In this document: positions 2,661-45,401 of the stretch, piece by piece
Position numbering within the stretch: the first letter of the stretch is position 1
Layout of the letters: each line of letters opens with the position of its first letter
Source: an uncultured Clostridia bacterium
GTDB lineage: Bacteria; Bacillota; Clostridia; Lachnospirales; CAMZNU01
Length of the DNA: 64,000 bases
Assembly (NCBI GenBank): GCA_947313885.1
Contig: CAMZNU010000002.1
Span: forward strand, 4,321 to 68,320
Direction of reading: 5' to 3'
Translations under genes and position numbers: made by a program
Notes under the pieces: model-generated
Database searches by the model: none
The model's input: only the letters and a program-made list of their open reading frames with translations
What the model was told of the DNA's origin: nothing

Positions 2661-2663
2661 ATT

Positions 2664-4166: not shown

Positions 4167-4187
4167 TTAATAATAGGAGAAGTATAT

Positions 4188-5438: not shown

Positions 5439-5441
5439 AAT

Positions 5442-5488
5442 AAGCAATAAAAAAACTATGGTTACGAGCCGTAGTTTTTTTATTGCTT
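5442..5488 (+). terminator. Rho-independent terminator after purD
   Basis: aagcaataaaaaaactatgg / ccgtagtttttttattgctt forms a 20-bp stem with one G-U pair and a 7-nt loop, starting 4 nt after the purD stop. Confidence 0.75.
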
Positions 5489-5605
5489 ACTACTATGCAT
5501 TTTAATAAAAGTTATACAAAGGTAAATATAGAAATATACAAATCGTTAAATATCTGCTAAAATAATACAAAAAGGGACACTAAAACATTTAAGGGAGGTG
5601 AACTA

Positions 5606-21139: not shown

Positions 21140-21148
21140 AGGTTAATT

Positions 21149-22606: not shown

Positions 22607-23454
22607 TGGAGTTATGGTACACAGAGAATCATACAGACGAAGTAAAATTTTCTATTAAGGTTGAGGAACACTTATATAGCAATCAAAGTAAGTTTCAAAA
22701 AATAGATGTATTTAAATCAAATGAATTTGGAACATTTTTCACGTTAGATGGACTTATGATGGTTACAGAAAAAGATGAGTTTATATATCACGATATGATA
22801 GTACATACAGCGCTTGCAACAAACCCGAATATAAAAAAAGTTTTAGTAATAGGAGCGGGAGATGGAGGAACAATAAGAGAATTAACACGATACAAAACAA
22901 TTGAAAAAATAGATTTAGTAGAAATCGATGAGGAAGTAGTAACAGTGTGCCAAAAGTTTTTACCACAAACATCAGAAAAATTAGAAGATGAAAGAGTTTC
23001 AATGTATTTTGAAGATGGTTTAAAATTTGTAAGAATGACAGAAAAAAAATATGATTTAATAATTGTAGATTCAACAGATCCATTTGGACCAGGTGAGGGG
23101 TTATTTACGGCGGAGTTTTATGGAAATTGTTATAAAGCGTTAAGCGGCGAGGGTATATTAATAAACCAACACGAATCACCGTATTATGATGAATTTGCAA
23201 ATAATATGAAAAGAGCACATAAAAGAATAAAAGAAATATTTCCTATATGCAGTGTATATCAAGCGCATATACCAACGTATCCATCAGGACATTGGTTATT
23301 TGGGTTTGCATCAAAAAAACATGATCCAATTAAAGATTTAAAAAAAGAAGAGTGGAATAAGTTAGGTTTAAAGACAAAATATTATAATACAGATTTACAT
23401 GTAGGATGTTTTGCACTACCAAACTATGTAAAGGAAATGTTAAACAATGTTTAA
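22606..23454 (+). CDS. speE: Spermidine synthase
   Basis: 282 aa with VLVIGAGDGGTIRE and VDSTDPFGPGE. Confidence 0.9.
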   Translation: MELWYTENHTDEVKFSIKVEEHLYSNQSKFQKIDVFKSNEFGTFFTLDGLMMVTEKDEFIYHDMIVHTALATNPNIKKVLVIGAGDGGTIRELTRYKTIEKIDLVEIDEEVVTVCQKFLPQTSEKLEDERVSMYFEDGLKFVRMTEKKYDLIIVDSTDPFGPGEGLFTAEFYGNCYKALSGEGILINQHESPYYDEFANNMKRAHKRIKEIFPICSVYQAHIPTYPSGHWLFGFASKKHDPIKDLKKEEWNKLGLKTKYYNTDLHVGCFALPNYVKEMLNNV

Positions 23455-24292
23455 AAATAATAGATTAAATTTTATAGGATGCGACAATAAATTTGAAGAA
23501 AGTGATATAGTGCTATTTGGTGCGCCGTTTGATGGGACTACATCATTTAGACCAGGGGCAAGATTTGCAAGCAATGCAATACGAGTAGAATCAGAGGGGA
23601 TAGAAACATACAGCCCATATCAAGAAAAAGATATAGAAAATAAAAAAATATATGATAATGGGGATTTAGAATTTCCATTTGGAAACGTACATAAAACGAT
23701 GGATATAATATATAGAAGAACAAAACAAATTTTAGACTATGGTAAAATACCAGTAATGATAGGCGGGGAACATTTAGTATCATACGGTACAGTAAAAGCT
23801 ATAAAAGAAAAATATGAAGACATATATATACTACATTTTGATGCTCATGCAGATTTAAGAGAAAATTATTTAGGTGAAGACTATTCCCATGCAACAGTGA
23901 TGAGAAGAATATTTGACATAGTAGGAAAAAATAAAATATATCAGTTAGGGATAAGATCAGGAACAAAAGATGAATTTGATTTCGCTAAAAAAAATACGAA
24001 TATGTGTAAATTCGATCTAGATAAAATAGATGAATATGTAGATAAATTAAAAGGGAAAAATGTTTATGTGACGATAGATTTAGATGTTTTAGATCCATCA
24101 ATTTTTTCAGGAACAGGAACACCAGAAGCGGGTGGTGTTAATTTTAAAACACTTTTAGATGCGGTATTAAAACTTAAAAATATAAATATTGTTGGTGCGG
24201 ACATAAATGAATTATCACCAATGTATGATAATAGTGGAGTGTCTACAGCAGTAGCTTGTAAAATTTTAAGAGAATTATTGTTAGTAGTCTAA
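23447..24292 (+). CDS. speB: Agmatinase (ureohydrolase family)
   Basis: 281 aa with the Mn-site motifs HFDAHADL, GGEH and DLDVLDP. Confidence 0.88.
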   Translation: MFKNNRLNFIGCDNKFEESDIVLFGAPFDGTTSFRPGARFASNAIRVESEGIETYSPYQEKDIENKKIYDNGDLEFPFGNVHKTMDIIYRRTKQILDYGKIPVMIGGEHLVSYGTVKAIKEKYEDIYILHFDAHADLRENYLGEDYSHATVMRRIFDIVGKNKIYQLGIRSGTKDEFDFAKKNTNMCKFDLDKIDEYVDKLKGKNVYVTIDLDVLDPSIFSGTGTPEAGGVNFKTLLDAVLKLKNINIVGADINELSPMYDNSGVSTAVACKILRELLLVV

Positions 24293-33019: not shown

Positions 33020-33445
33020 TTATTTAATTATTATTGCTTTACTCAATGCATCATCAACAGCCGTTAATAATATTTTAGTAGTTTCAATAGAAATTGCCGA
33101 AGTTTCAACAGAAGTACTTTGGTTTCTAATAATACTTTCAGAAAGTGCAACCATAGTAGGCTTTAACAATGGGTAGAAAACTTCTTGGGTTTCGTTTAGA
33201 TCTAGTAATAGCACATCTAATATTTCATATTCATCAACTACAACTACTACATTAATTTTAGAGTCGTTTAAAATGATTTCCGAAGTATATTCTCCTGGTA
33301 TGTATTTTGAGCTTTGTACTTCTTGATCATTTTTTGGTAAAAACATAAAAATGATAAATAATAATATTATAAGTCCTGTCACAAATAAAACAGTTGATCT
33401 AATAATATCCTTTAATGAGAAAACCATTATTTTAGTGTTTTTCAT
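33020..33445 (-). CDS. Membrane-anchored hypothetical protein with a distant FMN_bind-like ectodomain
   Basis: 141 aa with one N-terminal TM segment (VLFVTGLIILLFIIFMF). The ectodomain layout (Y.PGEY...INVVVVVD...ILDV...NET...II..QS..V...) resembles FMN_bind domains. The [ST]GA[ST] flavinylation motif is absent; the equivalent region reads ETSAISIETT. Confidence 0.35.
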   Translation of the reverse strand: MKNTKIMVFSLKDIIRSTVLFVTGLIILLFIIFMFLPKNDQEVQSSKYIPGEYTSEIILNDSKINVVVVVDEYEILDVLLLDLNETQEVFYPLLKPTMVALSESIIRNQSTSVETSAISIETTKILLTAVDDALSKAIIIK

Positions 33446-33551
33446 TTGTTACCTCCTTTTGTATATATGTTAATATAATATTACTTATAAATAAAAATTA
33501 TGATACAATTAAAAATAAAAATAAAAATAAAATTATTTTAGAATAAAAGAG

Positions 33552-36500
33552 GTGACCGTTATTTTACAATTTATATTAGGAAGTATTGGAAATGGCAAAA
33601 CAACATATTGTATAGAAGAAGCATATAAACGTAAAAACAAAAAGTTAAAAAGTTTAATAATAACACCAGATCAATTTGTGTTAGAAAGTGAAAAAAAAAT
33701 AATTAAATACACAAAGGAAAGAGGCATATTAGATATTGAAGTATTAGGGTTTAATAGGCTAGCACAAAGAATAATAGCTACCAGTAGCTTATCCAATAAA
33801 ACAATTTTAGATAGTACTACTAAAATAATGTTAATAAAAAAGATAATCATTGAAAATGAAAATAGATTACAATATTATTCTAATTCAGCAGATAAACAAG
33901 GATTTATTGAAAAAATAAGTAACATAATAAAAGAGTTTTATGAAAATGACGTAACAGAAAAAAAAATAGCACGTACAATAAAAGAATTGGTTAAGGAAAA
34001 AAATAATAACGTACTGTTAAAAAAAATAGAAGATATAAATTTAATTATAAGATGTTATAAAGAGTTTCTAGAAGAAAATTATATTGATGAAGATAATTTA
34101 TTAAATGTTTTGAATAAAATAATAAAAGAAGATGAAACGTTAAAAAACACAAGAGTATTTATAGATGGGTTTATTAATTGCAATAGATCACAAATAAAAA
34201 TAATAGGAAATCTTTTAAATATATGTGAAAAAGTAGTTATTACATTGCCTCTTAGTAAAGTACAAATAGAAAATACAATAACTAAACTTGATCCATATTA
34301 CGAACCCAAAAAAATGTATATGGAAATAATGAAGCTAGCCCATGAAAATGAAGTAAATATTGATACGGAAATAGTATTAGAAAACAAAACTAAATATAGT
34401 AAAGAAATAGATCATATTAGAGCAAATTACTTAAAAGTAAATCACATAGAAGAATTTAATTTTAATGAAAACATTAAGATAATTGAAGAAGAAGATAAGT
34501 TTGAAGAGGCAAAAGCTATAGGAAGAGAAGTAATATATTTAGTGAAAAATGAAGGATATAGATTTAAAGATATTGTAATTATAACAGGCGAAATAACAGA
34601 ATATGAAACAGTTATTAAAAGTGTATTTAAAAATTATAATATTCCAATTTTTGTAGATACTAAAAAACCGTTACACGTACATCCGTCTGTAGAAATTATT
34701 TTAGGAATATTAGATGTATGCATATCTAATTATTCATATGAAAGTATTTTTAGAATATTGAAGACGGGAATACTAGATTTTACAGAAGAGGAAGTTAATA
34801 TATTAGAGACATATGTATTAGCGACAGGTATGACAGGATATAAATGGGGGTTCGATGAATGGACTTTTGAATTAAAAAATGAACGTTTTGATTTAGAGGT
34901 TATTAACGATCTAAAAAATAGGTTTAGAAATGGCATTGTACCATTTACAAGCAAGTTCACATATAAAACAAAAAGCACAGTAAAAGAATTTTCAACGTAC
35001 ATAATTGAAGTTTTAAAAAATTTAAAAGTAGGAGAAAGGGTTTTAGCATTAAGCAATGAAGAAAACAATTATGATAAAATTTGGAAACAATTAATGGAAG
35101 TATTAAATAAAACAGTAGAGGTACTAGGAGGATCAGAAGTAACAACAATAGAATATAAAAAGCTATTAGAGTCAGGATTTTTAAGTGCAAATGTAGGGAT
35201 AATACCAGCAGGTCAAGATGAAATTATTTTAGGAAATATATCACGCACACAAATAGACGTTAAAAAGTGCTTAATCGTATTGGGATGTAACTTCGGAAAT
35301 ATTCCATTAGTAAATAAAGATGATACCTTATTAATAGATAGAGATATAGATACTATAAATAAAACAGGATATGAAATTTTAAATAATTCTAAGACAAAAG
35401 TGTTGGGGCAGAACTTATTACTTTATAGGATGCTATTAAAAAGTAGTAAAAATATAATTTTAACGTATTCAAGAAATACAGTTGCAGGTAAGGAGCTTTT
35501 AGCATCAGAACTTGTATTAAAAATACAAAAGATGTTTAACATAAAAATAAATGAGAATAAAGTATTGGCTAACGATGAAAATTTAGACTTGTTAAATATA
35601 ATTATTAAACTTAAAGATAATATAGAATTGAGTACTAAGGAAAAAAATTTAATAAATTATTATGAAAGAAATGAGCATAATAAAAACCTGTTAAATATAA
35701 TAAAAAAATCTTCGGCGCTACATAAAAAAAGAGAGGTTCTAAGCCCCGAGATAGTAAATAAAATATATAGTGATGAAATAGCGTCTAGCGTAACTAAATT
35801 AGAAAAATATGCTTTATGCCCATTTGCATATTTCATGAAATATAATTTAAATGTAGATGAACGTAAAATATATGAAGTGAGACATTTAGAATTTGGAAAT
35901 GTTTTGCATAATATATTAGACGACTTTATAACACAAATGAATGTACTAGGCAATGTATACGGAGATGTTACAAAAGAATATATAAGTGAATTTACAAAAG
36001 ATCATATGGAAAAAATAATCAAAGAGAATAAACATAATGTTTTTAATGATAATGAAAAAAATAAATATTTATTAAGTAGGATAAGTAGAATTGCAAAAAG
36101 ATCAATATGGGCATTAGTTGCGCATATAAATAGCGGGGAGTTTATACCATATAAATCAGAATTTTCTTTTTCGCGGAATCAAAGTCTAAAGGGTATAGAA
36201 TTTGATCTAGGAGATAATAAAAAAATTATCATTTCGGGTAAAGTTGATAGAATTGATATTTTGAAAACTGATGGCGAAAAATATTTCAAAATAATAGATT
36301 ATAAACTATCGGCTAAAAAAATAGATTTAAAAGATGTCTACAAAGGTGTAGAGTTACAACTTATAACATATTTAAATATTTTAATAGAGAACGTGGAAGG
36401 AATTAACGTAGATATTAAGAACCAAAATAAAGCAGGTGGAGTTTTTTACTTCACATTACAAGATCCATTATTAAGTAGTGATAAATTAGGGAGTGAAATT

Positions 36501-36953
36501 ATTAACGCTTTAAAATCAGAGGATGCGGGCATTGTAGAAGGTGAGGTTGACAAAGAAATATTGAAAGAGTTCAAAATGACAGGGCTTGTAAATGAAGATA
36601 AGGAAATTATAAAACATATAGATAATAGTGGAAATAAAAAATCTGATATTATACCGATAGCATTTAAAAAAGATGGTGAAATAAGTGCAGTTAGTCGCAG
36701 AAATGCGTTAAGTAATGAAGAATTTGATTTATTAAGAAATCATTGTACAAAAAAAATAGTTGAGATAGGCAAAAAAATGACAAATGGTGATATTTCAATA
36801 TCACCGTTAAAGAGAGATACAAAAACGTCATGTGATTTTTGTTTATATAAAGGAATATGCTTGATAGACATAGTAGACGAAAATAAAAGATATACGTCAA
36901 TAGAGAAACTAAGTAAAGAAGAAATATTTAAAAGAATTTTGGAGGAACAATAG
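33552..36953 (+). CDS. addB: Helicase-nuclease AddAB subunit B (AddB/RexB)
   Basis: 1133 aa with a GTG start. It has the N-terminal Walker A GSIGNGKTT, the C-terminal PD-(D/E)xK nuclease region (GKVDRIDIL...IIDYK), and Fe-S cysteines (LCPFAYF ... SCDFCLYKGIC). Confidence 0.85.
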   Translation: MTVILQFILGSIGNGKTTYCIEEAYKRKNKKLKSLIITPDQFVLESEKKIIKYTKERGILDIEVLGFNRLAQRIIATSSLSNKTILDSTTKIMLIKKIIIENENRLQYYSNSADKQGFIEKISNIIKEFYENDVTEKKIARTIKELVKEKNNNVLLKKIEDINLIIRCYKEFLEENYIDEDNLLNVLNKIIKEDETLKNTRVFIDGFINCNRSQIKIIGNLLNICEKVVITLPLSKVQIENTITKLDPYYEPKKMYMEIMKLAHENEVNIDTEIVLENKTKYSKEIDHIRANYLKVNHIEEFNFNENIKIIEEEDKFEEAKAIGREVIYLVKNEGYRFKDIVIITGEITEYETVIKSVFKNYNIPIFVDTKKPLHVHPSVEIILGILDVCISNYSYESIFRILKTGILDFTEEEVNILETYVLATGMTGYKWGFDEWTFELKNERFDLEVINDLKNRFRNGIVPFTSKFTYKTKSTVKEFSTYIIEVLKNLKVGERVLALSNEENNYDKIWKQLMEVLNKTVEVLGGSEVTTIEYKKLLESGFLSANVGIIPAGQDEIILGNISRTQIDVKKCLIVLGCNFGNIPLVNKDDTLLIDRDIDTINKTGYEILNNSKTKVLGQNLLLYRMLLKSSKNIILTYSRNTVAGKELLASELVLKIQKMFNIKINENKVLANDENLDLLNIIIKLKDNIELSTKEKNLINYYERNEHNKNLLNIIKKSSALHKKREVLSPEIVNKIYSDEIASSVTKLEKYALCPFAYFMKYNLNVDERKIYEVRHLEFGNVLHNILDDFITQMNVLGNVYGDVTKEYISEFTKDHMEKIIKENKHNVFNDNEKNKYLLSRISRIAKRSIWALVAHINSGEFIPYKSEFSFSRNQSLKGIEFDLGDNKKIIISGKVDRIDILKTDGEKYFKIIDYKLSAKKIDLKDVYKGVELQLITYLNILIENVEGINVDIKNQNKAGGVFYFTLQDPLLSSDKLGSEIINALKSEDAGIVEGEVDKEILKEFKMTGLVNEDKEIIKHIDNSGNKKSDIIPIAFKKDGEISAVSRRNALSNEEFDLLRNHCTKKIVEIGKKMTNGDISISPLKRDTKTSCDFCLYKGICLIDIVDENKRYTSIEKLSKEEIFKRILEEQ

Positions 36954-36954
36954 T

Positions 36955-38490
36955 ATGGTAGAACTAATAAAAAATGAAGTTAGTAAAATATTAAAAGTAA
37001 AAGAAGAAGATGTAAATATTTTAGAAAAATTAAAAGGTGGGATGAGTAACCATATGTATGTTATAGAAGTTAATGGTCTAAAATATACATTTAGAATACC
37101 TGGGAAAAAGGCTAATAATTTTGTAGATAGAGAAAAAGAGTTAGAAAATATTAAATTAGTTGAAAAATTAGAAGTTAACAATGAAATGTACTATTTCGAT
37201 GAGGTAGTAGGGTATAAGCTGTCAAAATATGTTGAGGGAGAATGTTTGATAGAAAAGAAAGTGGAAGACTATCTTGTAGATGTATCAGAAATTTTAAGAA
37301 AAGTGCATAATTCAGAATTAAGATCTAAATATGACTATGATTGTATGGGAAGATTATCAAAGTATGAGAAATTAGTAACAGATAAAGGTTATATAGGAAA
37401 AAGAGAAAAATATTATGAATTAAAGAAAAAACTGGAATCAGATTTCTCTTTTTTACAAAATGGTAATTTAGTTTTATGTCATGGAGATAGTCAGGTATCA
37501 AATTTTGTAGTGGGGGAAGATAAGTTATATTTATTAGACTGGGAATTTTGTGGAAATAATGACCCTATTTATGACATAGCTTGCTTTGGAAATGTTGATT
37601 TTGAAGATGCACTTAAATTATTGCCAATATATTTAGGACGTGAACCAAATGCTATTGAAATAAGTAAGTTAAATTATTTTAGAGGATTTCAATGTTTGCA
37701 ATGGCATAATGTTGCACTTTATAAGGATTTAATCGGTTTAAGCGAGGAACTTTCTGTTCCATTTTTAGAAATATCTGAAGGTTATTTAGTTAAGGCTGAG
37801 AAATTTTTAGAAGATGCGAGAATTAAAATGAATATAGAAAATGAAAAAGATTTATTAGAATTTGAAATATTTAAGGTTTTAGGGCCAGACATGTTAGAAA
37901 AAATGTCAAATGTAGTATACACCCAAACTATAGAAGCAGAAGAATTAATATATTCATCAAATGTATGTAAGGGTATATTAATAATTAAAGAAGGTAAATT
38001 TAGAGTATATATGGTTTCCGAAACAGGACGTGAAATAACTTTATTTTATGCAGAGAAAGGCGATACTTTGGCGCTTGCAATGAATTGTATGAGTGGTAGC
38101 ATGCCGATTAGTGTGCACGTTAAAGCTATTCAAGATAGTATTATTTATAAAATTGATAATGATGAATTTTTAAGATTTCATAGAAGTTCATTCGAGTTAC
38201 AAAAATTTATAATTGAGAACATGACGAAAAATATGAATGAAGTAATGTGGGTAATTGAACAAGTAGCGTTTAATAGTATAGACAAAAGAGTTGCAGGATA
38301 TTTATTAGACTTAGATCAAAATATTATTTATAAGACGCATAAAGAAATAGGCAATGAATTAGGAACGGCTAGGGAAGTCGTTAGTAGGATGTTAAAATAT
38401 TTCGAGCAACTAGGTCATATAGAAATTACACGAGGGAAAATTTATATTAAAGAAAAAGAAGAACTAGAAAAAATAGTTAGGCATATGTAA
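36955..38490 (+). CDS. Choline/ethanolamine-kinase-like phosphotransferase fused to a CRP/FNR-family transcription factor
   Basis: 511 aa in a single ORF. Residues 1-~290 form an APH/ChoK fold with GGMSNHMY, FRIPG, the Brenner motif HGDSQVSN and LLDWEF...NDPIYDIACF. Residues ~295-511 form a cNMP-binding beta-barrel plus the HTH GNELGTAREVVSRMLKYFEQLGHIEITRGKIYI. The ATG lies 1 nt after the addB stop. Confidence 0.8.
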   Translation: MVELIKNEVSKILKVKEEDVNILEKLKGGMSNHMYVIEVNGLKYTFRIPGKKANNFVDREKELENIKLVEKLEVNNEMYYFDEVVGYKLSKYVEGECLIEKKVEDYLVDVSEILRKVHNSELRSKYDYDCMGRLSKYEKLVTDKGYIGKREKYYELKKKLESDFSFLQNGNLVLCHGDSQVSNFVVGEDKLYLLDWEFCGNNDPIYDIACFGNVDFEDALKLLPIYLGREPNAIEISKLNYFRGFQCLQWHNVALYKDLIGLSEELSVPFLEISEGYLVKAEKFLEDARIKMNIENEKDLLEFEIFKVLGPDMLEKMSNVVYTQTIEAEELIYSSNVCKGILIIKEGKFRVYMVSETGREITLFYAEKGDTLALAMNCMSGSMPISVHVKAIQDSIIYKIDNDEFLRFHRSSFELQKFIIENMTKNMNEVMWVIEQVAFNSIDKRVAGYLLDLDQNIIYKTHKEIGNELGTAREVVSRMLKYFEQLGHIEITRGKIYIKEKEELEKIVRHM

Positions 38491-39161
38491 TGGAATATAT
38501 ATTAACCTTTTTTGCAGGAGTAATAACGTTTATATCACCGTGTTTATTACCTATTATCCCCATTTATATTAGCTACATCTCATTAGAAAATACGGCAAGT
38601 AGTAAGGTAAAGCTAATTAATTCAATTGGATTTTCTTTAGGATTTTCTATAGTGTTTTCAATGTTGGGAGCTATATTTTCAACGTTTTCGTTGTATGTAA
38701 ATGAATATAATAAAATTATTTCTATAGTTTCAGGAATTATAGTTATAACATTTGGATTAAGTGTATTAGGTGTAGTGCAATTGAAGATGCCGTATATTAA
38801 AAACAGAAGTAATTTAAACATGGAAAAACTAACATTTTTTAAATCTCTAATATTTGGAATTATTTTTGCTATTACAATGTCGCCGTGTTTAAATACATTT
38901 TTAGGAAGTGCATTATTACTATCAGCTAGTAGTGATAATTTAGACGTTATAAAAGGGGTAGCATTAATGTTAACATTTTCATTGGGGCTAGCAATACCGT
39001 TTATAATAACAGCGATGTTTATTGAGGAGATGGAAAAGATATTTTCAATGTTAAATAAAAATAGAAACAAAATACAAAAAATATCAGGAATATTTATGAT
39101 ATTTTTGGGTGTATTAATATTTATGGGAAAAATAAATTTAATTACCCAGATTTTTGATTAG
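38490..39161 (+). CDS. ccdA: CcdA/DsbD-family thiol-disulfide electron transporter
   Basis: 223 aa with 6 TM segments and the paired motifs FISPCLLPIIPIY and MSPCLNTF. A TAATG junction overlaps the upstream gene. Confidence 0.85.
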   Translation: MEYILTFFAGVITFISPCLLPIIPIYISYISLENTASSKVKLINSIGFSLGFSIVFSMLGAIFSTFSLYVNEYNKIISIVSGIIVITFGLSVLGVVQLKMPYIKNRSNLNMEKLTFFKSLIFGIIFAITMSPCLNTFLGSALLLSASSDNLDVIKGVALMLTFSLGLAIPFIITAMFIEEMEKIFSMLNKNRNKIQKISGIFMIFLGVLIFMGKINLITQIFD

Positions 39162-39768
39162 GAGGATTATGAATAAAAGAAGAATAATATTAATAATATC
39201 AACAGTATTGCTACTACTAGGAACATTAGTGACATCATATTTAACAAAGAATATATATGATACAAAAAATTATATTACAGATAACGTGGCAAGAGAAAAA
39301 AGTAAAGAAAAAAATGCGAAAGAAGGAGGCGTAGAAAAAGAAAACGAATCCGTTATAAATAGTTTAGATTTCACATTAAAAAACATAACAGGCAGTACTA
39401 CATCATTAAGTTCATTTAAAGATAAAAAAGTTGTTGTAATAAATTTCTGGGCAACATGGTGTAGTAATTGTAAAAAAGGGTTTCCAGATAAAATGAAATT
39501 AGAAGAACAATATAAAGAAAAAGTAGACTTTATTTTTATAAATGTTCAAGAAAGTAAAGAAAAAGTAGACGAGTATATGCGTGAAAATGGCTTTACATTT
39601 AAAAATAATTTATTAGATCTTGATGGTGAGGTCAGTCAATTATATGGAATTTCTGGAATACCAACAACAGTAATTATAAATAAAGAATTTACAGAAATTA
39701 TGGGATTTGTCGGAGATGTTGAAATAGGTATTTTTGAAAAAGAGATAATTAAGATGATTAGTAAATAA
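39154..39768 (+). CDS. Membrane-anchored TlpA/ResA-like thioredoxin-fold thiol-disulfide oxidoreductase
   Basis: 204 aa with an N-terminal TM anchor and FWATWCSNCK (WCxxC). It overlaps ccdA by 8 nt. Confidence 0.85.
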   Translation: MIRRIMNKRRIILIISTVLLLLGTLVTSYLTKNIYDTKNYITDNVAREKSKEKNAKEGGVEKENESVINSLDFTLKNITGSTTSLSSFKDKKVVVINFWATWCSNCKKGFPDKMKLEEQYKEKVDFIFINVQESKEKVDEYMRENGFTFKNNLLDLDGEVSQLYGISGIPTTVIINKEFTEIMGFVGDVEIGIFEKEIIKMISK

Positions 39769-39896
39769 TAAAACAAATGAAATTATGCAAGTTATTTACT
39801 CTAAAAGTATTATGTAAATAATATTGATTTTCATTAAAAAAAAAATATAGAATTAAAAACAGTTAGATTTACATTTATATTAGAAAAGGAGAACAA

Positions 39897-41084
39897 ATGG
39901 ATTTAGTAATGTTAAGTAGGATACAGTTTGCATTTACTGTAGGGTTTCATTTTTTATTTGTACCAATTAGTATTGGCGTGATTTTACATATGGCAATATT
40001 TGAATTTTTGCATTTAAAAACAGGGAAAGACGACTACAGAAAATTGACAGATTTTTTTGGAAATATATTTATTGTAAACTATGCAGTAGGTATAGTTACA
40101 GGAATTGGGATGAGTATACAGTTTGGAACTAATTGGGGAGAATATTCGACGTTTATGGGAGATTTATTTGGAGCTCCTTTAGCGATCGAGGCGTTACTAG
40201 CGTTTTTTCTAGAGTCTACATTTACGGGGATATATATTTTTAGAAGAAGTATTATGTCACCTAAATTTAGATTTGTAACAATTTTACTAATGACTTTAGG
40301 AACAAGTTTATCAGCATTATGGATTATAACGGCAAATGGGTTTATGCAAAACCCACTAGGTTACGAATTAAGTAGCGATGGGAGTAGAATAATATTAGTT
40401 GATTTTATGGCTATACTTTTAAACCCGTATGCGTGGTATATATTAGTACATACGTTACTAGCATCATATTTATTAGGTGCTATGTTCATAATGTCAGTGT
40501 CGGCAATGAAATTATTGCAACCTAATGTTTCAAAAGAAGAAAGTGAAATAATAGGCATGGCAACAAAAATTAGTAGTAAGACATTACTGTTGTTTAGTGT
40601 ATTAATATCAAGCCTAGGAGGTAGTTACACTATGTTCATAGGATTAATGCAAGAAACAAAAATGGATATGATTACGGGAATAGATAAATCTACAACAGGT
40701 CAAATAGTAGGTGCAAGCTTTTTAATAATGGTTACTCTTGGAACGATTTTTGTAATTATTGCGTTATACACGATTATCTTTTATAAACATTATGAAAAAT
40801 CTACAACTATGAAAAAAATATATGTTTATATATTTACATTGCCCTTTATAGCTATTCTTACGGGATGGATAGTAACAGAAGTAGGAAGACAGCCATGGGT
40901 AGTGTATGGGCTAATGAAAACTTCAGATGGTGTATCCTTAGTTCCTACAAGTCAAGTATGGTTTTCTCTAATTAGTGTGTTTTTAGTAAATGGAGTTCTG
41001 TTTGTTTTAGTAATGCATTTAAGTAAAACACAAATTAGAAAAAGTATATTTGACAATAAATACAACTATAAAGGAGGAAATTAA
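39897..41084 (+). CDS. cydA: Cytochrome bd oxidase subunit I (short Q-loop form)
   Basis: 395 aa with LSRIQFAFTVGFHFLFVP (N-terminal heme-ligand His), IEALLAFFLESTF, WYILVHTLLA and GWIVTEVGRQPWVVYG. Confidence 0.88.
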   Translation: MDLVMLSRIQFAFTVGFHFLFVPISIGVILHMAIFEFLHLKTGKDDYRKLTDFFGNIFIVNYAVGIVTGIGMSIQFGTNWGEYSTFMGDLFGAPLAIEALLAFFLESTFTGIYIFRRSIMSPKFRFVTILLMTLGTSLSALWIITANGFMQNPLGYELSSDGSRIILVDFMAILLNPYAWYILVHTLLASYLLGAMFIMSVSAMKLLQPNVSKEESEIIGMATKISSKTLLLFSVLISSLGGSYTMFIGLMQETKMDMITGIDKSTTGQIVGASFLIMVTLGTIFVIIALYTIIFYKHYEKSTTMKKIYVYIFTLPFIAILTGWIVTEVGRQPWVVYGLMKTSDGVSLVPTSQVWFSLISVFLVNGVLFVLVMHLSKTQIRKSIFDNKYNYKGGN

Positions 41085-42101
41085 ATGTCACATGAATTAT
41101 TAGCAAATATTTGGTTTCTTATTTTAGCATTAGTATGGTCATTATATGTAATTCAAGAAGCATTCGTAGTAGGTCTTAGTGTTATGTCGGCAAAATATAA
41201 GGAAGAAAAAGATGTTAGAAAAATAAATACGTTAGTAGGAACACATTGGGATGGTATAGAGGTATGGTTAGTTTTAGCAGTAGCAGGTCAATTTGCGGCT
41301 TTTCCAGTTATTTTTGCAGAAACATTAACTAACTTATACGTAGTATTCTTTCTACTGTTATATATTATAGTAGCGAGAGGGATGGCTATTGAAACATTAT
41401 ATAAAACAGACAATAAAAAAGTTCAAAAAGCATTAAAAGTTACATGGCAAGTGTCATCACCACTTTTAATATTAGTTATAGGCGTGTATCTTACAAATTT
41501 ATTTATGGGGCTTCAATTGTTAGAAAATTATATTGAAGGCGGATTTTTTCATTTCCTATATATATTTAATTTTACGGCAATATTAGGCGGTGTAATGTTT
41601 GTAACGTATAGCTTAACATCAGGATATAACTTTTTAGTTTTAAATTATAAAAATGATTTAAAGGAAAATATAGAACATATAGGTAAATATGCATCAGTAA
41701 TAACAGTTGTAACACTTATTTTTATATTAATGTCATTAAATAATGAATATTCAGTTTTTAATAGTGGAGTGTATGAGACGTATCAAATTTTGATATTACT
41801 ACCAGCACTATCGGCAATAATGATGATTGCATCAATGATTTTTGTGTGGTTAAATAAAAATTTATTTTCATTTATTACGCAGTCGTTAGGTATGACTTTA
41901 TTTATTTTTACAGGATTTGTTGGATCAATGCCATATGCGTTAAAAAGTATTAATAAAACTCAAGGAGCAGGAAGTATTTTAATGGTAGATGGTGCAGCCG
42001 GACCTAAAACCCTAGAATTAATGTTATATTTGACAATAGCATTTTTACCTATAGTTTTAGGATATATAATATTTAAGTATATTAAATTTTGGGGGAAATA
42101 A
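41085..42101 (+). CDS. cydB: Cytochrome bd oxidase subunit II
   Basis: 338 aa polytopic protein. It starts immediately after the cydA stop (TAAATG), and its size and topology are typical of CydB. Confidence 0.8.
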   Translation: MSHELLANIWFLILALVWSLYVIQEAFVVGLSVMSAKYKEEKDVRKINTLVGTHWDGIEVWLVLAVAGQFAAFPVIFAETLTNLYVVFFLLLYIIVARGMAIETLYKTDNKKVQKALKVTWQVSSPLLILVIGVYLTNLFMGLQLLENYIEGGFFHFLYIFNFTAILGGVMFVTYSLTSGYNFLVLNYKNDLKENIEHIGKYASVITVVTLIFILMSLNNEYSVFNSGVYETYQILILLPALSAIMMIASMIFVWLNKNLFSFITQSLGMTLFIFTGFVGSMPYALKSINKTQGAGSILMVDGAAGPKTLELMLYLTIAFLPIVLGYIIFKYIKFWGK

Positions 42102-42102
42102 T

Positions 42103-43140
42103 ATGACGATAAACCAAAAAAAGCAAAGTTTAGATAAATTAAAGATAGATTTAGTCAGTTATCAAAAACTGGTATATAATACATTGGTTATATTAGTAGC
42201 TATAAAGTTAGCTTTGTATATAGATATAGGTATTTTATATGTGTTAAAACATTTAGCATTAACGGGTATCGCTGTTGTAGTGTCACGCGAAGTGGAAATT
42301 TTATATTATTTTCACTATTATGAAAAATCTAGGGAAGAATCATTAAAAATAATAGAAACAACAAGACCAGAAATAGTAGCTTTGTTAATCGTTTTAATTT
42401 TTAATTACAATGTACCACCAGAAGGTGTAATTATAGCAGTATCACTTAGTATATTATTAAGTAGAATAGCATTTGGTGGTTTTTCGTATAATATATTTAA
42501 TACAGCAGCATTAGGTGTTGTCATTTTAAATGAAAGCTATAGAATGTCTATAGAAACGTTTGCACTAGACGATATAATCGATAAAGTGTTAGGTATTTTT
42601 TTTGTTGAATCCTTTGCACATAAACCGATACCTGTAGCTAATTTGGCAATAAGCATACCGGACGTATCATCTGTAGATTTAACTTCAGTTGCTATATTAG
42701 TAATAGCGATAATATTTTTTATGTCTTTAGTTATCAACAAGGTAGGGCGAATATTGCTACCAATAGCAACAGTATTTTTTATTTCCGTATTAGTGGCATT
42801 AGTAGGTGGGCGATATATTCCGATTTTAATAGAAGTAATTGGTCGCTACACAATAATAGGAATTTTATTTTTCACCTTAGACTTTCCTACAACTCCAAGG
42901 TTTAAAAATTCTACTATTGTAACAGCGTTAATAATTGCAATAGTTACTGTTTATATTAAATTTTTTACAGACAATGGATACGGAGTATTTTATGGTATTT
43001 TAATAGCAAATATGTGTACACCAATTCTTGATGCTAAATTTGCCAAGTATAAGGATAACGCATCGTCAATATCAATAGTAGTAGTAATTTCGTTTATAAT
43101 AAGTGTGTTAATTAGCTATCTTATTAAAGTAAATGTGTAG
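42103..43140 (+). CDS. RnfD/NqrB-family membrane protein, divergent, with no flavinylation motif
   Basis: 345 aa. FGGFSYNIFNTAALGV matches the FGGLG-N-FNPA block, and C-terminal DFPTTP...GYGVFYGILIANMCTPILD matches ATDPVT-P...G-FAIL--N---P-ID. No [ST]GA[ST] occurs anywhere in the protein. The ATG lies 1 nt after the cydB stop. Confidence 0.65.
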   Translation: MTINQKKQSLDKLKIDLVSYQKLVYNTLVILVAIKLALYIDIGILYVLKHLALTGIAVVVSREVEILYYFHYYEKSREESLKIIETTRPEIVALLIVLIFNYNVPPEGVIIAVSLSILLSRIAFGGFSYNIFNTAALGVVILNESYRMSIETFALDDIIDKVLGIFFVESFAHKPIPVANLAISIPDVSSVDLTSVAILVIAIIFFMSLVINKVGRILLPIATVFFISVLVALVGGRYIPILIEVIGRYTIIGILFFTLDFPTTPRFKNSTIVTALIIAIVTVYIKFFTDNGYGVFYGILIANMCTPILDAKFAKYKDNASSISIVVVISFIISVLISYLIKVNV

Positions 43141-43154
43141 TATGGAGGGTAAAT

Positions 43155-43706
43155 ATGAAAAATAAAATATTGCAATATTCAATAGTCCTTTTTGTTATTA
43201 CATTTATATCAGCTACGTCTATAACATTCATGAAAAATATAACAGAACCAATACTTACGTTACGTGCAAAGGAAAAGTTAGATTATGCTATAAATAATAA
43301 TTTGAAGATTTTATATCCATCAATGAGTGATGACTATGAAGTTTTAGATGATACGATAAGAAATAAGTCACTTATTACTAATATATTCAAAATTACATTT
43401 AAAAATAATGACAATACATACTATACATACAATGTTAGTAGTCCAGGGAAAAATGGAAATATAAATTTTTTAGTTGTTTATAATGAAATGAATAAAATAG
43501 ATAACATCATTTATATTTCACACAAGGAAACAAGAGGCAGAGGAGACAAAATAGAAAGTGAAGATTTTTTAAGCAAAATCGTAGGTCAACATATAGGGGG
43601 TTTTAATGCACCGAATATTACAGGAGCTACATACAGTTCATTAGGGGTTAAAAATGGAATAGAGGAAGCTAACAAACATTTACAGGAGGTGATATTAGGT
43701 GAATAA
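43155..43706 (+). CDS. rnfG: RnfG/NqrC-type FMN-binding subunit
   Basis: 183 aa with an N-terminal TM anchor and an FMN_bind domain carrying HKETRGRGDK and the flavinylation motif ITGATYSS. Confidence 0.78.
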   Translation: MKNKILQYSIVLFVITFISATSITFMKNITEPILTLRAKEKLDYAINNNLKILYPSMSDDYEVLDDTIRNKSLITNIFKITFKNNDNTYYTYNVSSPGKNGNINFLVVYNEMNKIDNIIYISHKETRGRGDKIESEDFLSKIVGQHIGGFNAPNITGATYSSLGVKNGIEEANKHLQEVILGE

Positions 43707-44322
43707 GTTATATACAAATTTAAAAGATTCTCTCATAAAAGATAACCCAATATTTGTCTCGTATTTAGCGTTATGCCCAACATTAGGAACGACATCTACA
43801 TTTAACAATGCGATAGGAATGGGCTTAAGTGTTTTATTTGTTCTTATTTTTTCAAATCTTTTAATATCATCAGTGAGGAATTTTGTACCCAGTGAAATAA
43901 GAATTCCTGTTTTTATTACAATAATAGCTTCACTAGTTACATTATTAGAAATGATCTTAGAGGCTGTAACGCCAACATTATACGAAACGTTAGGTATGTT
44001 TTTACCTCTTATAGTAGTAAATTGTATTATACTAGGTCGTGCCGAATCGTTTGCATCAAAAAATAATGTTAAAAAATCAATAATAGATGGACTTATTACA
44101 GGATTAGCATTTGCTATAACAATAAGTATTATAGGAGCATTTAGAGAATTTTTTGGAACAGGTTCAATAAGTATATTTTCATTAAGATTACAAATGTTCA
44201 CGCAAGAAATCATGCCATCATTTTTAACTAAAAACACAGGTGCATTTATATCGTTAGGGTTAATGGGCTGGGTATTTAATGAGATTAAAATAAACAATAT
44301 GAAGAAAGGAAAGGTGAATTAA
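43699..44322 (+). CDS. rnfE: RnfE/NqrD-type membrane subunit
   Basis: 207 aa with a GTG start after aggagg. It has NPIFVSYLALCPTLGTT and VVNCIILGRAE, so both conserved Cys are present. It overlaps rnfG by 8 nt. Confidence 0.85.
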   Translation: MNKLYTNLKDSLIKDNPIFVSYLALCPTLGTTSTFNNAIGMGLSVLFVLIFSNLLISSVRNFVPSEIRIPVFITIIASLVTLLEMILEAVTPTLYETLGMFLPLIVVNCIILGRAESFASKNNVKKSIIDGLITGLAFAITISIIGAFREFFGTGSISIFSLRLQMFTQEIMPSFLTKNTGAFISLGLMGWVFNEIKINNMKKGKVN

Positions 44323-44895
44323 ATGACTATGAATGAAATAATTATTTTCGCAGTTTCAGCTTTCTTAGTTCAAAATATAGTGTTAACTCAATTTTTAGGA
44401 CTATGTTCATTTTTTGGAGTTTCAAATAAAAGAACATCAGCGGTAGGCATGGGACTAAGTGTTTTAGCTGTAATTACATTATCATCAATAGTAACATATA
44501 CTATTTATTATAAAATTTTAGTGCCGTACGACTTATTACATTTAAGAACGATAGTATTCATTTTAGTAGTTAGTGGATTTGTGCAAATTGTAGAAATGAT
44601 AATTAAAAAAATATCAAAACCGTTATATGATATTTTAGGTATTTATTTACCATTAATAACTACAAATTGTGCTGTGCTAGGAGTTGCATTGATAAATATA
44701 GATAGGCAATTTACATTTACGCAAATGATAATATTTTCAATATCAACAGCATTAGGTTACACAGTTGTAGTATACATGTTTTCATTTTTAAGAGATGAAA
44801 TAAATAAATCACCAGTACCTAGAGCATTAAGAAATAATCCAATAGCTTTACTAACAGCAGGAATTATGGCGTTAGCCATGAGTGGCTTAGTATAG
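44323..44895 (+). CDS. rnfA: RnfA/NqrE-type membrane subunit
   Basis: 190 aa with VQNIVLTQFLGLCSFFGVS and LPLITTNCAVLGVAL, so both conserved Cys are present. It starts directly after the rnfE stop. Confidence 0.85.
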   Translation: MTMNEIIIFAVSAFLVQNIVLTQFLGLCSFFGVSNKRTSAVGMGLSVLAVITLSSIVTYTIYYKILVPYDLLHLRTIVFILVVSGFVQIVEMIIKKISKPLYDILGIYLPLITTNCAVLGVALINIDRQFTFTQMIIFSISTALGYTVVVYMFSFLRDEINKSPVPRALRNNPIALLTAGIMALAMSGLV

Positions 44896-44904
44896 GAGGA
44901 ATAT

Positions 44905-45066
44905 ATGAGTTTTATTGTAGGCGTTCTTTTAATAGCAACATTGGCAACTTTTTTTATAGTAACGTATTATCTAAATAAAAAAATGGATACTAATAGCAAT
45001 TATAGATTAAATGAATGTAAGACTTGCACATATAAAAATGGTAGTTGTAAAAATAGAGGAGTTTAA
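44905..45066 (+). CDS. Unlisted 53-aa membrane peptide with a C-terminal Cys-rich tail
   Basis: My own translation is MSFIVGVLLIATLATFFIVTYYLNKKMDTNSNYRLNECKTCTYKNGSCKNRGV. An aggagga RBS sits at 44894-44900. There is one TM helix, then C-x2-C-x6-C. It fills the gap between rnfA and the rnfB-like gene exactly. It is below the 60-aa cutoff of the ORF track. Confidence 0.5.
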   Translation: MSFIVGVLLIATLATFFIVTYYLNKKMDTNSNYRLNECKTCTYKNGSCKNRGV

Positions 45067-45067
45067 T

Positions 45068-45352
45068 ATGATAGTTGAAATATTAACAGCGGGAATAGTA
45101 GTTGGTATTATGGGATTACTAATAGGTGTTGTAATAGCTGTAAGTAGCAAAATTTTCAAGGTGGAAGTTGATGATAGGATAGATATTATTTATAAAATGT
45201 TACCATCATTTAATTGTGGATCTTGTGGAACGGCTGGATGCATGGCATTTGCAGAAACTTTAATCAAAGGAGAAAACACTATTGATAAATGTAGACCGTG
45301 TAAACCAGAAGCAGAAGAAAAAATAATAAAAAAATTGAACGAGCTGATATAA
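45068..45352 (+). CDS. RnfB-like protein consisting only of the N-terminal TM anchor and 4Fe-4S domain
   Basis: 94 aa counted from the in-frame ATG at 45068 (agaggag RBS). It has a TM helix and then LPSFNCGSCGTAGCMAFAETLIKGENTIDKC (Cx2Cx4Cx16C). The ferredoxin-like 2x[4Fe-4S] domains of full-length RnfB are absent. The listed start at 45011 would overlap the 53-aa ORF. Confidence 0.7.
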   Translation: MIVEILTAGIVVGIMGLLIGVVIAVSSKIFKVEVDDRIDIIYKMLPSFNCGSCGTAGCMAFAETLIKGENTIDKCRPCKPEAEEKIIKKLNELI

Positions 45353-45353
45353 A

Positions 45354-45401
45354 TTGTTAACTAAAAAAACACACTGCAAAGTGTGTTTTTTTAGTTAACA
45401 A
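45354..45401 (+). terminator. Strong terminator closing the cyd-rnf operon
   Basis: ttgttaactaaaaaaacacact-gcaa-agtgtgtttttttagttaacaa forms a 22-bp perfect stem with a GCAA loop, starting 2 nt after the stop codon. Confidence 0.8.

Follow-up and report, generated by a model that had tools for sequence, protein, structure and literature searches.

Few one-component sensors have been studied as well as the CRP/FNR regulators, which with rare exceptions consist of a single sensor barrel and an HTH. Bifunctional enzyme/transcription factors, such as NadR, RbkR and BirA, constitute a functional class and not a homologous family. For instance, NadR contains an HTH, an NMN adenylyltransferase and a ribosylnicotinamide kinase. 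RbkR is an archaeal riboflavin kinase with a wHTH, of which the operator binding is modulated by the nucleotide substrate and product of the kinase (PMC5397151). CcrZ/YtmP is a kinase of the choline-kinase fold for ribose and 2-deoxyribose and has been linked to the initiation of replication and to sensitivity to DNA damage (PMC9135335). For the protein described here, the nearest solved structure to the N-terminal half is the LicA choline kinase of Streptococcus pneumoniae (PDB 4R77/4R7B; PF01633; profile E 1e-34), and the closest PDB structure to the C-terminal half is 3DV8 (EUBREC_1222), a putative Crp/Fnr-family regulator of Eubacterium rectale (E 1.4e-32, 32% identity).

The window analyzed in this study, a 64-kb stretch of DNA, is from an uncultured gut-type Clostridia bacterium. 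A fused gene at 36955..38490 (+) of this window encodes 511 amino acid residues, starts with ATG and has an uninterrupted frame. Its ribosome-binding site GGAGG (36941-36945, +) was read directly in the 3' end of addB. An earlier note on this DNA had described the gene as one 511-codon frame with a kinase and a CRP/FNR regulator in a single polypeptide, which the profile and fold searches bore out. The motifs quoted there were all found, including GGMSNHMY (residues 28-35), HGDSQVSN (176-183), DWEF (195-198) and TAREVVSRMLKYFEQLGHIEITRGKIYI (471-498). The Pfam matches, all above the curated cut-offs, were Choline_kinase (E 3.6e-20), APH (4.7e-11), cNMP_binding (2.7e-9), HTH_Crp_2 (3.7e-13) and Crp (8.2e-6). 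The mean pLDDT of the AlphaFold (AF2) model of the 511-aa protein was 87.4, and the C-terminal half of the model resembled the CRP/FNR structure 3dv8. Residues 1-289 form a complete LicA/choline-kinase-fold domain and residues from about 292 to 511 a complete CRP/FNR regulator. With a catalytic and a DNA-binding domain in one polypeptide, the protein has the domain composition of the bifunctional enzyme/transcription factors of the NadR, RbkR and BirA type.

The open frame was found in several data sets. An independent Logan assembly (L004) contained an identical stretch of 6461 nt with 0 mismatches. In the strain L020/L021, whose nucleotide identity to the window was 98.8%, the junction sequence was identical. 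Altogether, the same open frame and the identical junction were recovered from the assemblies of two sequencing runs and from two NCBI MAGs. Moreover, the frame of an orthologue from a third data set (protein P0002 of L001) was open throughout, with a linker of equal length. As L004, L020/L021 and L001 were all uninterrupted, an assembly or frameshift artefact was rejected.

In the split relatives L005, L007 and L009, addB is followed by a kinase gene (289 aa), a TAA with a ribosome-binding site and the start of a CRP gene (217 aa), in which the kinase and CRP genes are 15-20 nt apart. This adjacency was kept in at least four split genomes, and the closest standalone CRPs (P0121-P0124, 50-52% identity) are exactly the neighbours of the split-form kinases. 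Given these sister lineages with split genes, the fusion arose when the stop codon between two adjoining operon genes was lost, an origin that the earlier note had overlooked. In the ancestor, tightly spaced but separate genes for a LicA-fold small-molecule kinase (~289 aa) and a regulator of the CRP/FNR type (~217 aa) came after addB. When the kinase gene lost its stop codon, the spacer became a short in-frame linker and the two products became one polypeptide. At the junction (37822..37884, +), Ile290-Lys291 occupies the position where the stop codon and spacer used to be and is followed by Met292 (37828-37830), probably the ancestral CRP start, and then by what was once the N-terminus of the CRP protein. 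The model was of low confidence at this place (linker pLDDT about 61), and its interdomain geometry was not confident (pTM 0.63). In P0002, Met292 is replaced by Ile, and this lack of conservation of the internal Met makes it less likely that the CRP half is translated on its own. The strong ribosome-binding site of the split forms is also missing ahead of Met292 in the fused gene, and separate CRP translation from Met292 is thus unlikely.

Whichever half the tree was built from, the fused proteins were sisters; in both of them, the anchor motifs flanking the junction were 20 residues apart. Independent fusions in the two species were rejected, given the sister placement in both trees, the equal linker length and the common synteny, and the comparison points to a single fusion event. 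The identities between the window and L001 were 57.3% for the fusion, 43.5% for AddB and 42.2% for TlpA. At 57% amino-acid identity, the synonymous sites between the window and L001 were saturated. Between strains, dN/dS was 0.23, based on only 18 substitutions, and the changes were spread over both halves. All family-invariant residues were kept in the fusion. The gene fusion is genuine and evolutionarily fixed, and purifying selection has maintained it in at least two species that diverged deeply. When 1.84 billion representative proteins were scanned exhaustively with phmmer, the fusion turned up in one cluster only, a word-indexed search of 5.8 billion clusters yielded no other fusions, and no fused locus was found in a scan of the GTDB species representatives. 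As the sequence scans returned this cluster alone, a wider distribution was rejected. These searches limit the fusion to one small clade, and a kinase extension on a CRP/FNR protein is as unusual as the note had supposed, with one cluster per 1.84 billion representatives. A literature search on the kinase-CRP/FNR architecture returned nothing relevant.

The kinase domain (residues 1-289; 36955..37821, +) is collinear end to end with standalone members of 289-293 aa and has the same terminus (FLEDAR). Its score against Choline_kinase (PF01633) was 72.9 bits vs. a cut-off of 29. Compared with LicA (4r7b_B), the kinase half had a Foldseek TM of 0.82, normalised to the target, and an rmsd of 3.0 A. 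A bilobal eukaryotic-protein-kinase-like fold was present in the AF2 model, and pLDDT was at least 90 across most of residues 1-289. Profile and fold searches both support the kinase fold, on which the earlier reading of this gene depended. The P-loop GGMSNHMY (37036..37059, +), which includes the GGM[TS]N motif as G28-G-M-S-N32, contains M30 and S31, corresponding to LicA M28 and T29. The Brenner phosphotransferase motif HGDSQVSN (H-x-D-x4-N; H176-G-D178-S-Q-V-S-N183; 37480..37503, +) contains the catalytic D178 and N183, with Q180 in place of LicA V178. Overall, the catalytic residues align with LicA T29, D176, N181, D194 and E196. In the choline-kinase motif LLDWEFCGNNDPIYDIACFGN (37531..37593, +), D195, E197 and F198 are kept and only the last position differs, where LicA E213 is replaced by Asn213, which is invariant in the kinase family. 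In the family-invariant FQCLQWHNVALYK (37687..37725, +), W250 corresponds to LicA W251 and V253 to the lost W254. Of the LicA choline cage (M28, Y197, W251, W254 and Y268), M30, F198 and W250 are kept, W254 is changed to V253 and Y268 is outside the alignable stretch. That the choline pocket had been partly dismantled was not mentioned in the earlier note.

Judged from the alignments and the model, the kinase half retains all residues for ATP, Mg and catalysis and looks functional. Choline is doubtful as its substrate, because the choline pocket is partly lost (E213 to N, W254 to V). The pocket changes are invariant in hundreds of standalone members and therefore mark the substrate of the family, not decay. 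The family comprises ~290-aa LicA-like proteins of Bacillota and Izemoplasmatales. Its identification as CcrZ (NF046102) was rejected, as the score was 19.4 bits vs. a cut-off of 400, and identification as ThiK or GntI was also rejected, with scores far under the curated cut-offs. Elsewhere, the kinase gene adjoins other genes, such as those for desulfoferrodoxin, an ABC importer or an MBL hydrolase. The family keeps company with DNA/nucleotide genes, including addB, Ham1 fusions and dUTPase-like and MBL phosphodiesterase-like neighbours. A literature search on ChoK-Ham1 fusions returned nothing relevant.

The C-terminal half matched PF00027, PF13545 and PF00325 above the cut-offs, and the barrel, the long helix and HTH_Crp_2 were seen in the model. 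Its cNMP-binding-like beta-barrel sensor domain (about residues 311-411; 37885..38187, +) is without cAMP contacts. E72, R82, S83, T127 and S128 of E. coli CRP correspond to A375, I385, S386, V430 and M431, and the [4Fe-4S] ligands C20, C23, C29 and C122 of E. coli FNR, an oxygen sensor, to N, K, E and Y. In addition, the NCBIfam scores were 40.5 bits vs. a cut-off of 266 for CRP and 28.8 bits vs. 228 for Fnr. Identity with the cAMP-dependent CRP or the Fe-S-containing FNR was rejected, as the cAMP contacts and the FNR cluster cysteines are both absent. The replacement of C20, C23 and C29 by N, K and E agrees with the earlier note, in which no FNR-type N-terminal Cys cluster was seen. The half instead belongs to the 3DV8-like subfamily, whose signature consists of two invariant barrel cysteines (C-x-G and [SN]-C) and the recognition helix G[TS]AREVVSRMLKYFE. 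Cys338 (codon 37966..37968, +) and Cys378 (codon 38086..38088, +), the latter aligned with the phosphate-binding-cassette region of E. coli CRP, as well as residues 470-484 matched 22 of 22 aligned members, down to ~30% identity. The invariant Cys pair in the sensor pocket and the loss of the cAMP contacts had both been overlooked in the earlier note. A long C-helix (residues 413-438; 38191..38268, +) was found in the AF2 model and is probably the dimerisation helix of CRP/FNR proteins. The recognition helix GTAREVVSRMLKYFE (38362..38406, +), with R473, E474, S477 and R478, is nearly invariant across the subfamily, and the DNA-contact residues equivalent to E. coli CRP R180/E181/R185 and FNR E209/S212/R213 are kept. 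With its beta-barrel, dimerisation helix and R-E-x-x-S-R DNA contacts, the regulator half likewise looks functional as far as alignment and model can tell. Outside the fused/split clade, members of this CRP subfamily stand alone. A literature search on the 3DV8 subfamily returned nothing relevant.

In fused and split lineages alike, addB (33552..36953, +) is conserved in the operon ahead of the genes for the kinase and the CRP. In the window, its stop codon (36951-36953) is one base ahead of the ATG of the fusion. The stop codon TAA of the fusion overlaps the ATG of ccdA (DsbD_TM; 38490..39161, +) at 38490, and ccdA is a downstream partner in the fused clade only. Next is a gene for a TlpA-like membrane-anchored thioredoxin-fold protein (39169..39768, +), which most likely starts at ATG 39169, with an AGGAGG overlapping the ccdA stop, and not at TTG 39154. 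The spacing of these genes is as the earlier note had described it when coupling the fusion to addB, ccdA and the tlpA-like gene. Further downstream are cydA, cydB and RnfD/G/E/A-like genes. The order addB-fusion-ccdA-tlpA was also found in L001, where cydAB-rnf do not follow. In the split lineages, the kinase-CRP pair is followed by dUTPase-like and unrelated genes, without ccdA, tlpA, cyd or rnf. No terminator was predicted between addB and 45354, and an Rfam scan of the window identified no RNA elements. A probable promoter region of the operon is at 33446..33551 (+), where TATAATATTA is 17 nt ahead of an extended -10 (TGATACAAT). The spacing between the two was equal in L005 and L009. Rather than as a regulator binding motif, the conserved TATAATATTA upstream of addB can more simply be taken as a promoter -10 type sequence. 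FNR-type palindromes were not enriched in the window (10 vs. 7.0 expected), CRP-type palindromes were depleted (11 vs. 24 expected), and the upstream regions of the window, L001, L005, L009, L015 and L020 had no palindrome in common. A weak FNR-like TTGATTTTCATTAA with one mismatch upstream of cydA (39824..39837, +), which has no statistical support, overlaps the predicted -35 hexamer TTGATT and was kept in strain L020.

The joining of the two halves can be read in several ways. That an assembly, frameshift or gene-calling error wrongly joined two genes is exceedingly improbable: the DNA comes from a metagenome-assembled genome whose relatives carry split forms, but the independent assemblies (two runs and two NCBI MAGs) agree on frame and junction and the 57%-identical orthologue is uninterrupted with an equal linker, by which the artefact reading is largely refuted. 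It is also highly improbable that the kinase half has degenerated into a pseudokinase and now only binds a ligand as the sensor of the regulator. The changes in the choline pocket (LicA E213, W254 and V178 replaced by N, V and Q) might suggest so; however, the alterations are invariant in hundreds of standalone members, and both fused proteins retain an intact P-loop and Brenner motif as well as D195 and E197. The earlier note considered the fusion the obvious regulator of a redox island, dedicated to ccdA-tlpA-cydAB-rnf, with the kinase-like domain as a sensor or modifier. The overlap of the fusion stop with the ccdA start, the terminator-free prediction from addB to 45354, the presence of ccdA-tlpA downstream in both fused species, the FNR-like site before cydA and an invariant Cys pair that would suit thiol/redox sensing are all consistent with this proposal. 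However, the neighbourhood is not conserved, as L001 lacks cyd and rnf after tlpA and the split-form pair lacks all four nearby; CRP/FNR sites are not enriched, and the single FNR-like site coincides with the predicted -35. In addition, the Cys pair is subfamily-wide and occurs in unrelated contexts, and a catalytically complete kinase does not fit a mere sensor. The proposal is thus not supported and is unlikely; control of cyd-rnf by the fusion is not indicated.

The best explanation overall, on which we are evenly divided, is a fixed fusion that is a bifunctional enzyme-regulator with halves forming one functional module. The C-terminal half would dimerise, bind a CRP/FNR-type inverted repeat and sense via its own pocket. 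The absence of cAMP contacts from this pocket and its two invariant cysteines point to a thiol, a metal or another non-nucleotide effector. The N-terminal half would phosphorylate a small alcohol, probably not choline. As one module, the regulator would respond to or control the kinase pathway, with a logic similar to that of NadR and RbkR. The addB operon to which it belongs is most likely among its targets, as are ccdA-tlpA in the fused clade. The ligands of the kinase may also gate DNA binding by direct allostery. A tolerated accidental fusion, in which the kinase and the regulator work independently and the tether has no regulatory meaning, is nevertheless a sizeable possibility. A same-strand spacer of 15-20 nt in the split forms eases accidental fusion, and fusion alone is therefore no proof of coupling. 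Both families are overwhelmingly unlinked, the fusion occurs in one clade only, and the model has no confident interdomain contact. Moreover, the CRP half has its full sensor with both invariant cysteines and therefore would not need the kinase. However, the adjacency was kept in at least four split genomes, the fusion was maintained across species with AddB merely 43.5% identical, one lineage has lost the internal start codon, and known enzyme/transcription-factor fusions, such as NadR and BirA, generally show feedback. RbkR is one such case (PMC5397151). The restriction of the kinase-CRP linkage to one small clade, the other gene contexts of the kinase elsewhere, the standalone members of the CRP subfamily and the failure of the motif searches to yield a binding motif speak against the module.

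If an intact kinase is permanently joined to a CRP/FNR regulator, this would be a new input mode for the family. The fusion provides a concrete, testable link between two widespread families, the ~290-aa LicA-like kinases and the 3DV8-like CRP subfamily, because both genes adjoin in sister lineages. Speculatively, and with a rather low probability, this protein may be the first CRP/FNR regulator with DNA binding gated by an attached active kinase. Occupancy by ATP, substrate or product would then affect dimerisation or the sensor pocket, with the kinase placed like the cluster-binding extension of FNR, and an operon for DNA repair and thiol redox would be transcribed according to a metabolite pool, possibly nucleoside/ribose-related. 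If this gating were true, the fusion would be a Rosetta stone that ties two large uncharacterised Bacillota families together functionally. Limited as it is to two uncultured Lachnospirales-related species, the fusion is of modest practical value.

Similar to LicA, the kinase half has the bilobal fold, the P-loop, the Brenner motif, the Mg-binding Asp and the catalytic Asp. Different from LicA, to which it is ~23% identical, it has Asn for E213 (the acidic partner of the quaternary amine), Val for W254 and Gln for V178, all three invariant in its family, and the fused gene has no lic genes nearby and is joined to a transcription factor. CcrZ demonstrates that substrates other than choline can be phosphorylated by a LicA fold once its pocket is rebuilt (PMC9135335), and the kinase family of the fused gene is likewise found among DNA/nucleotide genes; the kinase here, however, is not a CcrZ orthologue and its pocket is only partly rebuilt. 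The regulator half shares both pocket cysteines and the recognition helix AREV(V/I)(S/T)RML(K/R)YF with 3DV8, whereas 3DV8 and all other subfamily members found stand alone with about 215-240 aa. With E. coli CRP and FNR it shares the architecture of beta-barrel, C-helix and HTH, from which the fused protein differs by a 290-aa enzymatic N-terminal extension. The proteins P0332, P0337 and P0288 combine a wHTH (HTH_24), a nucleotidyltransferase and a choline kinase, of which the kinase is distantly related (33-37% identity). Their N-terminal HTH is of another class without a sensor barrel, a LicC-like transferase is included, and their origin is independent. Finally, similar to RbkR and NadR, the fused protein carries a small-molecule kinase and a DNA-binding domain in one polypeptide; different from them, its kinase and DNA-binding folds are unrelated to theirs, and its DNA-binding module has its own complete sensor.

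The fused gene was a single open frame of 511 codons at 36955..38490 (+), which started with an ATG one base beyond the addB stop codon and had a GGAGG ribosome-binding site at 36941-36945, 5' of the ATG. The uninterrupted ORF described in the earlier note was therefore recovered, and all sequence motifs quoted for its protein were present where that note had placed them. Four Pfam domain models exceeded their curated cut-offs in the fused protein. Choline_kinase (E 3.6e-20) and APH matched residues 24-216, cNMP_binding matched residues 329-410, and HTH_Crp_2 and Crp matched residues 444-507. Foldseek searches against PDB related the N-terminal half to the pneumococcal LicA choline kinase (4r7b_B, target-normalised TM 0.82, rmsd 3.0 A) and the C-terminal half to the Crp/Fnr-family protein 3DV8, and sequence searches gave the same answers for both halves. 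Profile, structure and sequence searches agreed on a kinase fold and a CRP/FNR half in one polypeptide. The AlphaFold2 model built from a 40-sequence alignment had a mean pLDDT of 87.4, mostly >90 in the kinase half and 70-90 in the CRP half, falling to ~61 at residues 290-300. At a pTM of 0.63, the model does not fix how the two halves are oriented to each other.

This domain combination, which had been called unusual, was without counterpart in the databases searched, although each half belongs to a known superfamily. In a word-indexed search of 5.8 billion protein clusters, both halves occurred together only in the cluster of the window protein (P0001 and P0241) and in P0002, the protein of a distant second species (locus L001). 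When 1.84 billion representatives at 50% identity were scanned exhaustively with phmmer, the one full-length match was P0002 (658 bits); among the matches listed, the other 149, down to 108 bits, covered residues 1-296 or 294-509, never both. No fused locus was found among 185,579 GTDB species representatives. By PolC, the host belongs to a deep Lachnospirales lineage, with only 50-54% identity to its nearest named relatives Tyzzerella, [Clostridium] colinum, Anaerotignum and Epulopiscium. The GC content of the window was 28.8%.

That two separate genes were wrongly joined is extremely improbable. A window stretch of 6461 nt recurred without mismatch in an independent Logan assembly (L004, run ERR7998035). 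In a second strain (GCA_947313815.1 and Logan ERR7998036; L020, L021), the fused gene was 98.8% identical, differing at 9 synonymous and 9 non-synonymous positions, and its junction sequence was exactly the same. Moreover, P0002 (Logan SRR23346875), from a much more distant organism, was 510 aa long and uninterrupted, with 57% identity across 99% of its length. The same open frame in all three effectively rules out an assembly artefact. The identities between the window and L001 were 57.3% for the fusion, 60.5% for CcdA, 43.5% for AddB and 42.2% for the TlpA-like protein; the excess over AddB and the TlpA-like protein shows that the fused gene was maintained over a long divergence. This long-term conservation, together with a dN/dS of 0.23 between the strains (only 18 substitutions), points to purifying selection.

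The other close relatives of the kinase half were stand-alone proteins of 289-293 aa (50-63% identity) that terminate at FLxxA[KR], exactly where the fusion reads on. The closest relatives of the CRP half were four stand-alone 217-aa CRP/FNR proteins (P0121-P0124, 50-52% identity), whose genes lie directly downstream of the closest stand-alone kinase genes. The genes of these split-form loci (L005, L007 and L009) run in this order: a divergent 141-aa ORF, addB, a kinase gene (289 aa), a spacer of 15-20 nt, a CRP gene (217 aa) and a dUTPase-like gene. Within the spacers are a stop codon (TAA), a ribosome-binding site (AGGAGG or GAAGGAAA) and a start codon (ATG or GTG); the fused genes read through the corresponding stretch in frame, as coding sequence. 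At the window junction, Ile290-Lys291 is followed by Met292 (37828-37830), probably the former CRP start; P0002 has Ile at this position, which shows that an internal start has not been conserved. The flanking anchor motifs are 20 residues apart in both fused proteins. In neighbor-joining trees of either half, the fused proteins were sisters adjoining the split-pair clade, and both fused species share ccdA-tlpA downstream. The simplest account is one ancestral loss of a stop codon between two adjacent operon genes. Our results demonstrate that the fusion is real, that it derives from adjacent genes and that purifying selection acts on it, both halves being intact.

Several features around these loci were also observed. 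In the classical addBA operon of Firmicutes, addA follows addB. Kinase and CRP genes take the place of addA 3' of addB (window 33552..36953) here and in L001, L005, L009 and L020, and no AddA-like gene was found throughout the 64-kb window. The divergent 141-aa ORF (33020..33445, -), which has an N-terminal membrane helix and no Pfam match, is kept upstream of addB in L001, L005, L009 and L020 (57-64% identity). A conserved element, TATAATATTA, lies exactly 17 nt 5' of a TG in the window (33446..33551), L005 (6341..6508), L009 (6411..6508) and L001 (6450..6549). The TG opens an extended -10 (TGnTAnAAT) in the first three, and L001 has no good -10; these elements are probably tandem or divergent promoter elements. 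L009 also carries a polyamine-synthesis cluster (1975..5947; AdoMet decarboxylase, Orn/Lys/Arg decarboxylase, spermidine synthase and agmatinase), which by ORF lengths only appears to be present upstream in the window at 20345..24292. Elsewhere in the window, a pyruvate:ferredoxin oxidoreductase gene (51208..54741) is followed downstream by two tandem sodium:alanine symporter paralogues (54863..56320, 485 aa; 56763..58223, 486 aa).

The kinase half keeps all residues invariant in the stand-alone family. A LicA profile alignment (E 1e-34) was mapped to residues defined in structural studies of LicA and CcrZ (PMC4364537; PMC9135335). LicA M28 and T29 align with M30 and S31 of the fusion, and the LicA T29S mutant is fully active (PMC4364537). 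LicA D176, N181, D194 and E196 correspond to D178, N183, D195 and E197, so the ATP, Mg and catalytic apparatus is intact; that this half is a pseudokinase sensor is very unlikely. The substrate pocket is partly LicA-like, with Y197 (F198) and W251 (W250) counted as retained. At the position of LicA E213, the partner of the quaternary amine and final residue of the choline-kinase motif (PMC4364537), the fusion has Asn213; W254 is replaced by Val253 and V178 by Gln180. Because of these replacements, choline is a doubtful substrate. All three are invariant in the kinase family; they represent a specialisation of the family as a whole and not decay of the fused copies. The N-terminal half thus fails one defining choline-kinase feature, with the ChoK/APH fold itself present. 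CcrZ, a LicA fold with a rebuilt pocket, phosphorylates ribose and deoxyribose instead (PMC9135335); the fused protein was rejected as a CcrZ, ThiK or GntI equivalog, with scores far under all cut-offs. Fusions of a Ham1/ITPase N-terminal domain to this kinase recur (P0244, P0261, P0274 and others of 470-500 aa). Among Izemoplasmatales (L022 and L023, 3203..4876), an MBL-fold (PhnP/Apyc1-like) phosphodiesterase-like gene lies directly 5' of the kinase gene, and an MBL-fold hydrolase and the kinase form one protein in P0094. These partners, like the dUTPase-like gene 3' of the split pair, handle nucleotides or ribose phosphates, which is suggestive, not proof, of a related substrate for this widespread kinase family. 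Contexts with desulfoferrodoxin or an ABC importer are off this pattern. The closest stand-alone kinase (P0003, 63% identical; L002 7595..8873, Lachnospirales MAG GCA_047973385.1) is encoded directly 3' of a desulfoferrodoxin gene. Genes for ferritin and flavin oxidoreductase are close by, and this oxidative-stress setting has no relation to CRP.

The CRP half was aligned with E. coli CRP and FNR; in this alignment, the cAMP contacts E72, R82, T127 and S128 are replaced by A375, I385, V430 and M431, and the FNR cluster ligands C20, C23, C29 and C122 by N, K, E and Y. The earlier note was thus right that an FNR-type N-terminal Cys cluster is missing. The CRP half was rejected as a cAMP receptor or Fe-S FNR on these residues, and its membership of the CRP/FNR superfamily stands. 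In the same alignment, the DNA contacts are kept: R473, E474 and R478 equal CRP R180, E181 and R185, and E474, S477 and R478 equal FNR E209, S212 and R213. Two sensor-barrel cysteines are invariant among 22 relatives, down to ~30% identity: C338 (codon 37966-37968) in C-x-G and C378 (38086-38088) in the region of the CRP phosphate-binding cassette. The recognition helix G[TS]AREVVSRMLKYFE (GTAREVVSRMLKYFE) is almost unchanged across the clostridial 3DV8-like subfamily, and 3DV8 itself shows the helix and both cysteines. As judged from these residues, the subfamily probably recognises a conserved CRP/FNR-like inverted repeat and would probably sense, for example, a thiol oxidant, metal or haem through a cysteine-containing pocket. 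Literature searches on this subfamily found nothing.

The downstream order of ccdA (DsbD_TM), a TlpA-like redoxin gene, cydA, cydB and Rnf-like genes was as first described, and the first predicted terminator 3' of the fused gene, strong and bidirectional, is at 45354..45401. It had been proposed that the fusion regulates this ccdA-tlpA-cyd-rnf island. Just one FNR-like match occupies a regulatory position (39824-39837, 5' of cydA), and it falls on the -35 hexamer of a predicted promoter; conservation of its half-sites in L020 has little weight at such overall identity. In the split-form loci, ccdA, tlpA, cyd and rnf are all absent from the surroundings of the kinase and CRP pair, and ccdA-tlpA in L001 is followed by unrelated genes. 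Neither FNR-type sites (TTGAT-N4-ATCAA, ≤1 mismatch; 10 vs. 7.0 expected by chance) nor CRP-type sites (≤2 mismatches; 11 vs. 24 expected) were enriched in the window. The comparative evidence gives no tie between the regulator and this island, and the proposal is improbable. The sole partner conserved in every lineage, fused or split, is the upstream addB. Palindrome scans of the regions upstream of orthologous loci found nothing shared. Our default guess is autoregulation of the addB operon, with control of ccdA-tlpA in the fused clade. Upstream of cydA (39769..39896; L020 12782..12913), an inverted repeat of 8 nt, TTATTTAC...GTAAATAA, occurs together with repeats of the unit ATTTAC, of which L020 has three in tandem. 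At 39897..45352, cydA and cydB run straight into a partial Rnf set, an unusual gene string kept in L020: RnfD-like (42103), FMN_bind/RnfG-like (43155), RnfE- and RnfA-like Rnf-Nqr membrane subunits (43699, 44323) and a small RnfB-N-like FeS ORF (45011..45352, PF04060), with no RnfC or full-length RnfB.

There is about an even chance that the fusion is a bifunctional enzyme-regulator whose halves form one functional module; that the kinase half directly gates DNA binding by allostery is rather unlikely. The main rival, a tolerated accidental fusion whose neighbors work independently, is a tentative but serious possibility. In its favour are the very short spacer between the split genes, a sensor domain that lets the CRP half work by itself and the usual lack of linkage between the two families. 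The fusion, limited to two uncultured species, is a neat Rosetta-stone case that points to two uncharacterised families, without being a major surprise. It fits among the enzyme-regulator fusions of one-component regulators. Similar to the fusion, proteins with HTH_24, nucleotidyltransferase and ChoK domains combine a DNA-binding domain with ChoK, but with domains other than those found here, and NadR and RbkR are likewise fusions of kinase and transcription factor, built from unrelated domains.
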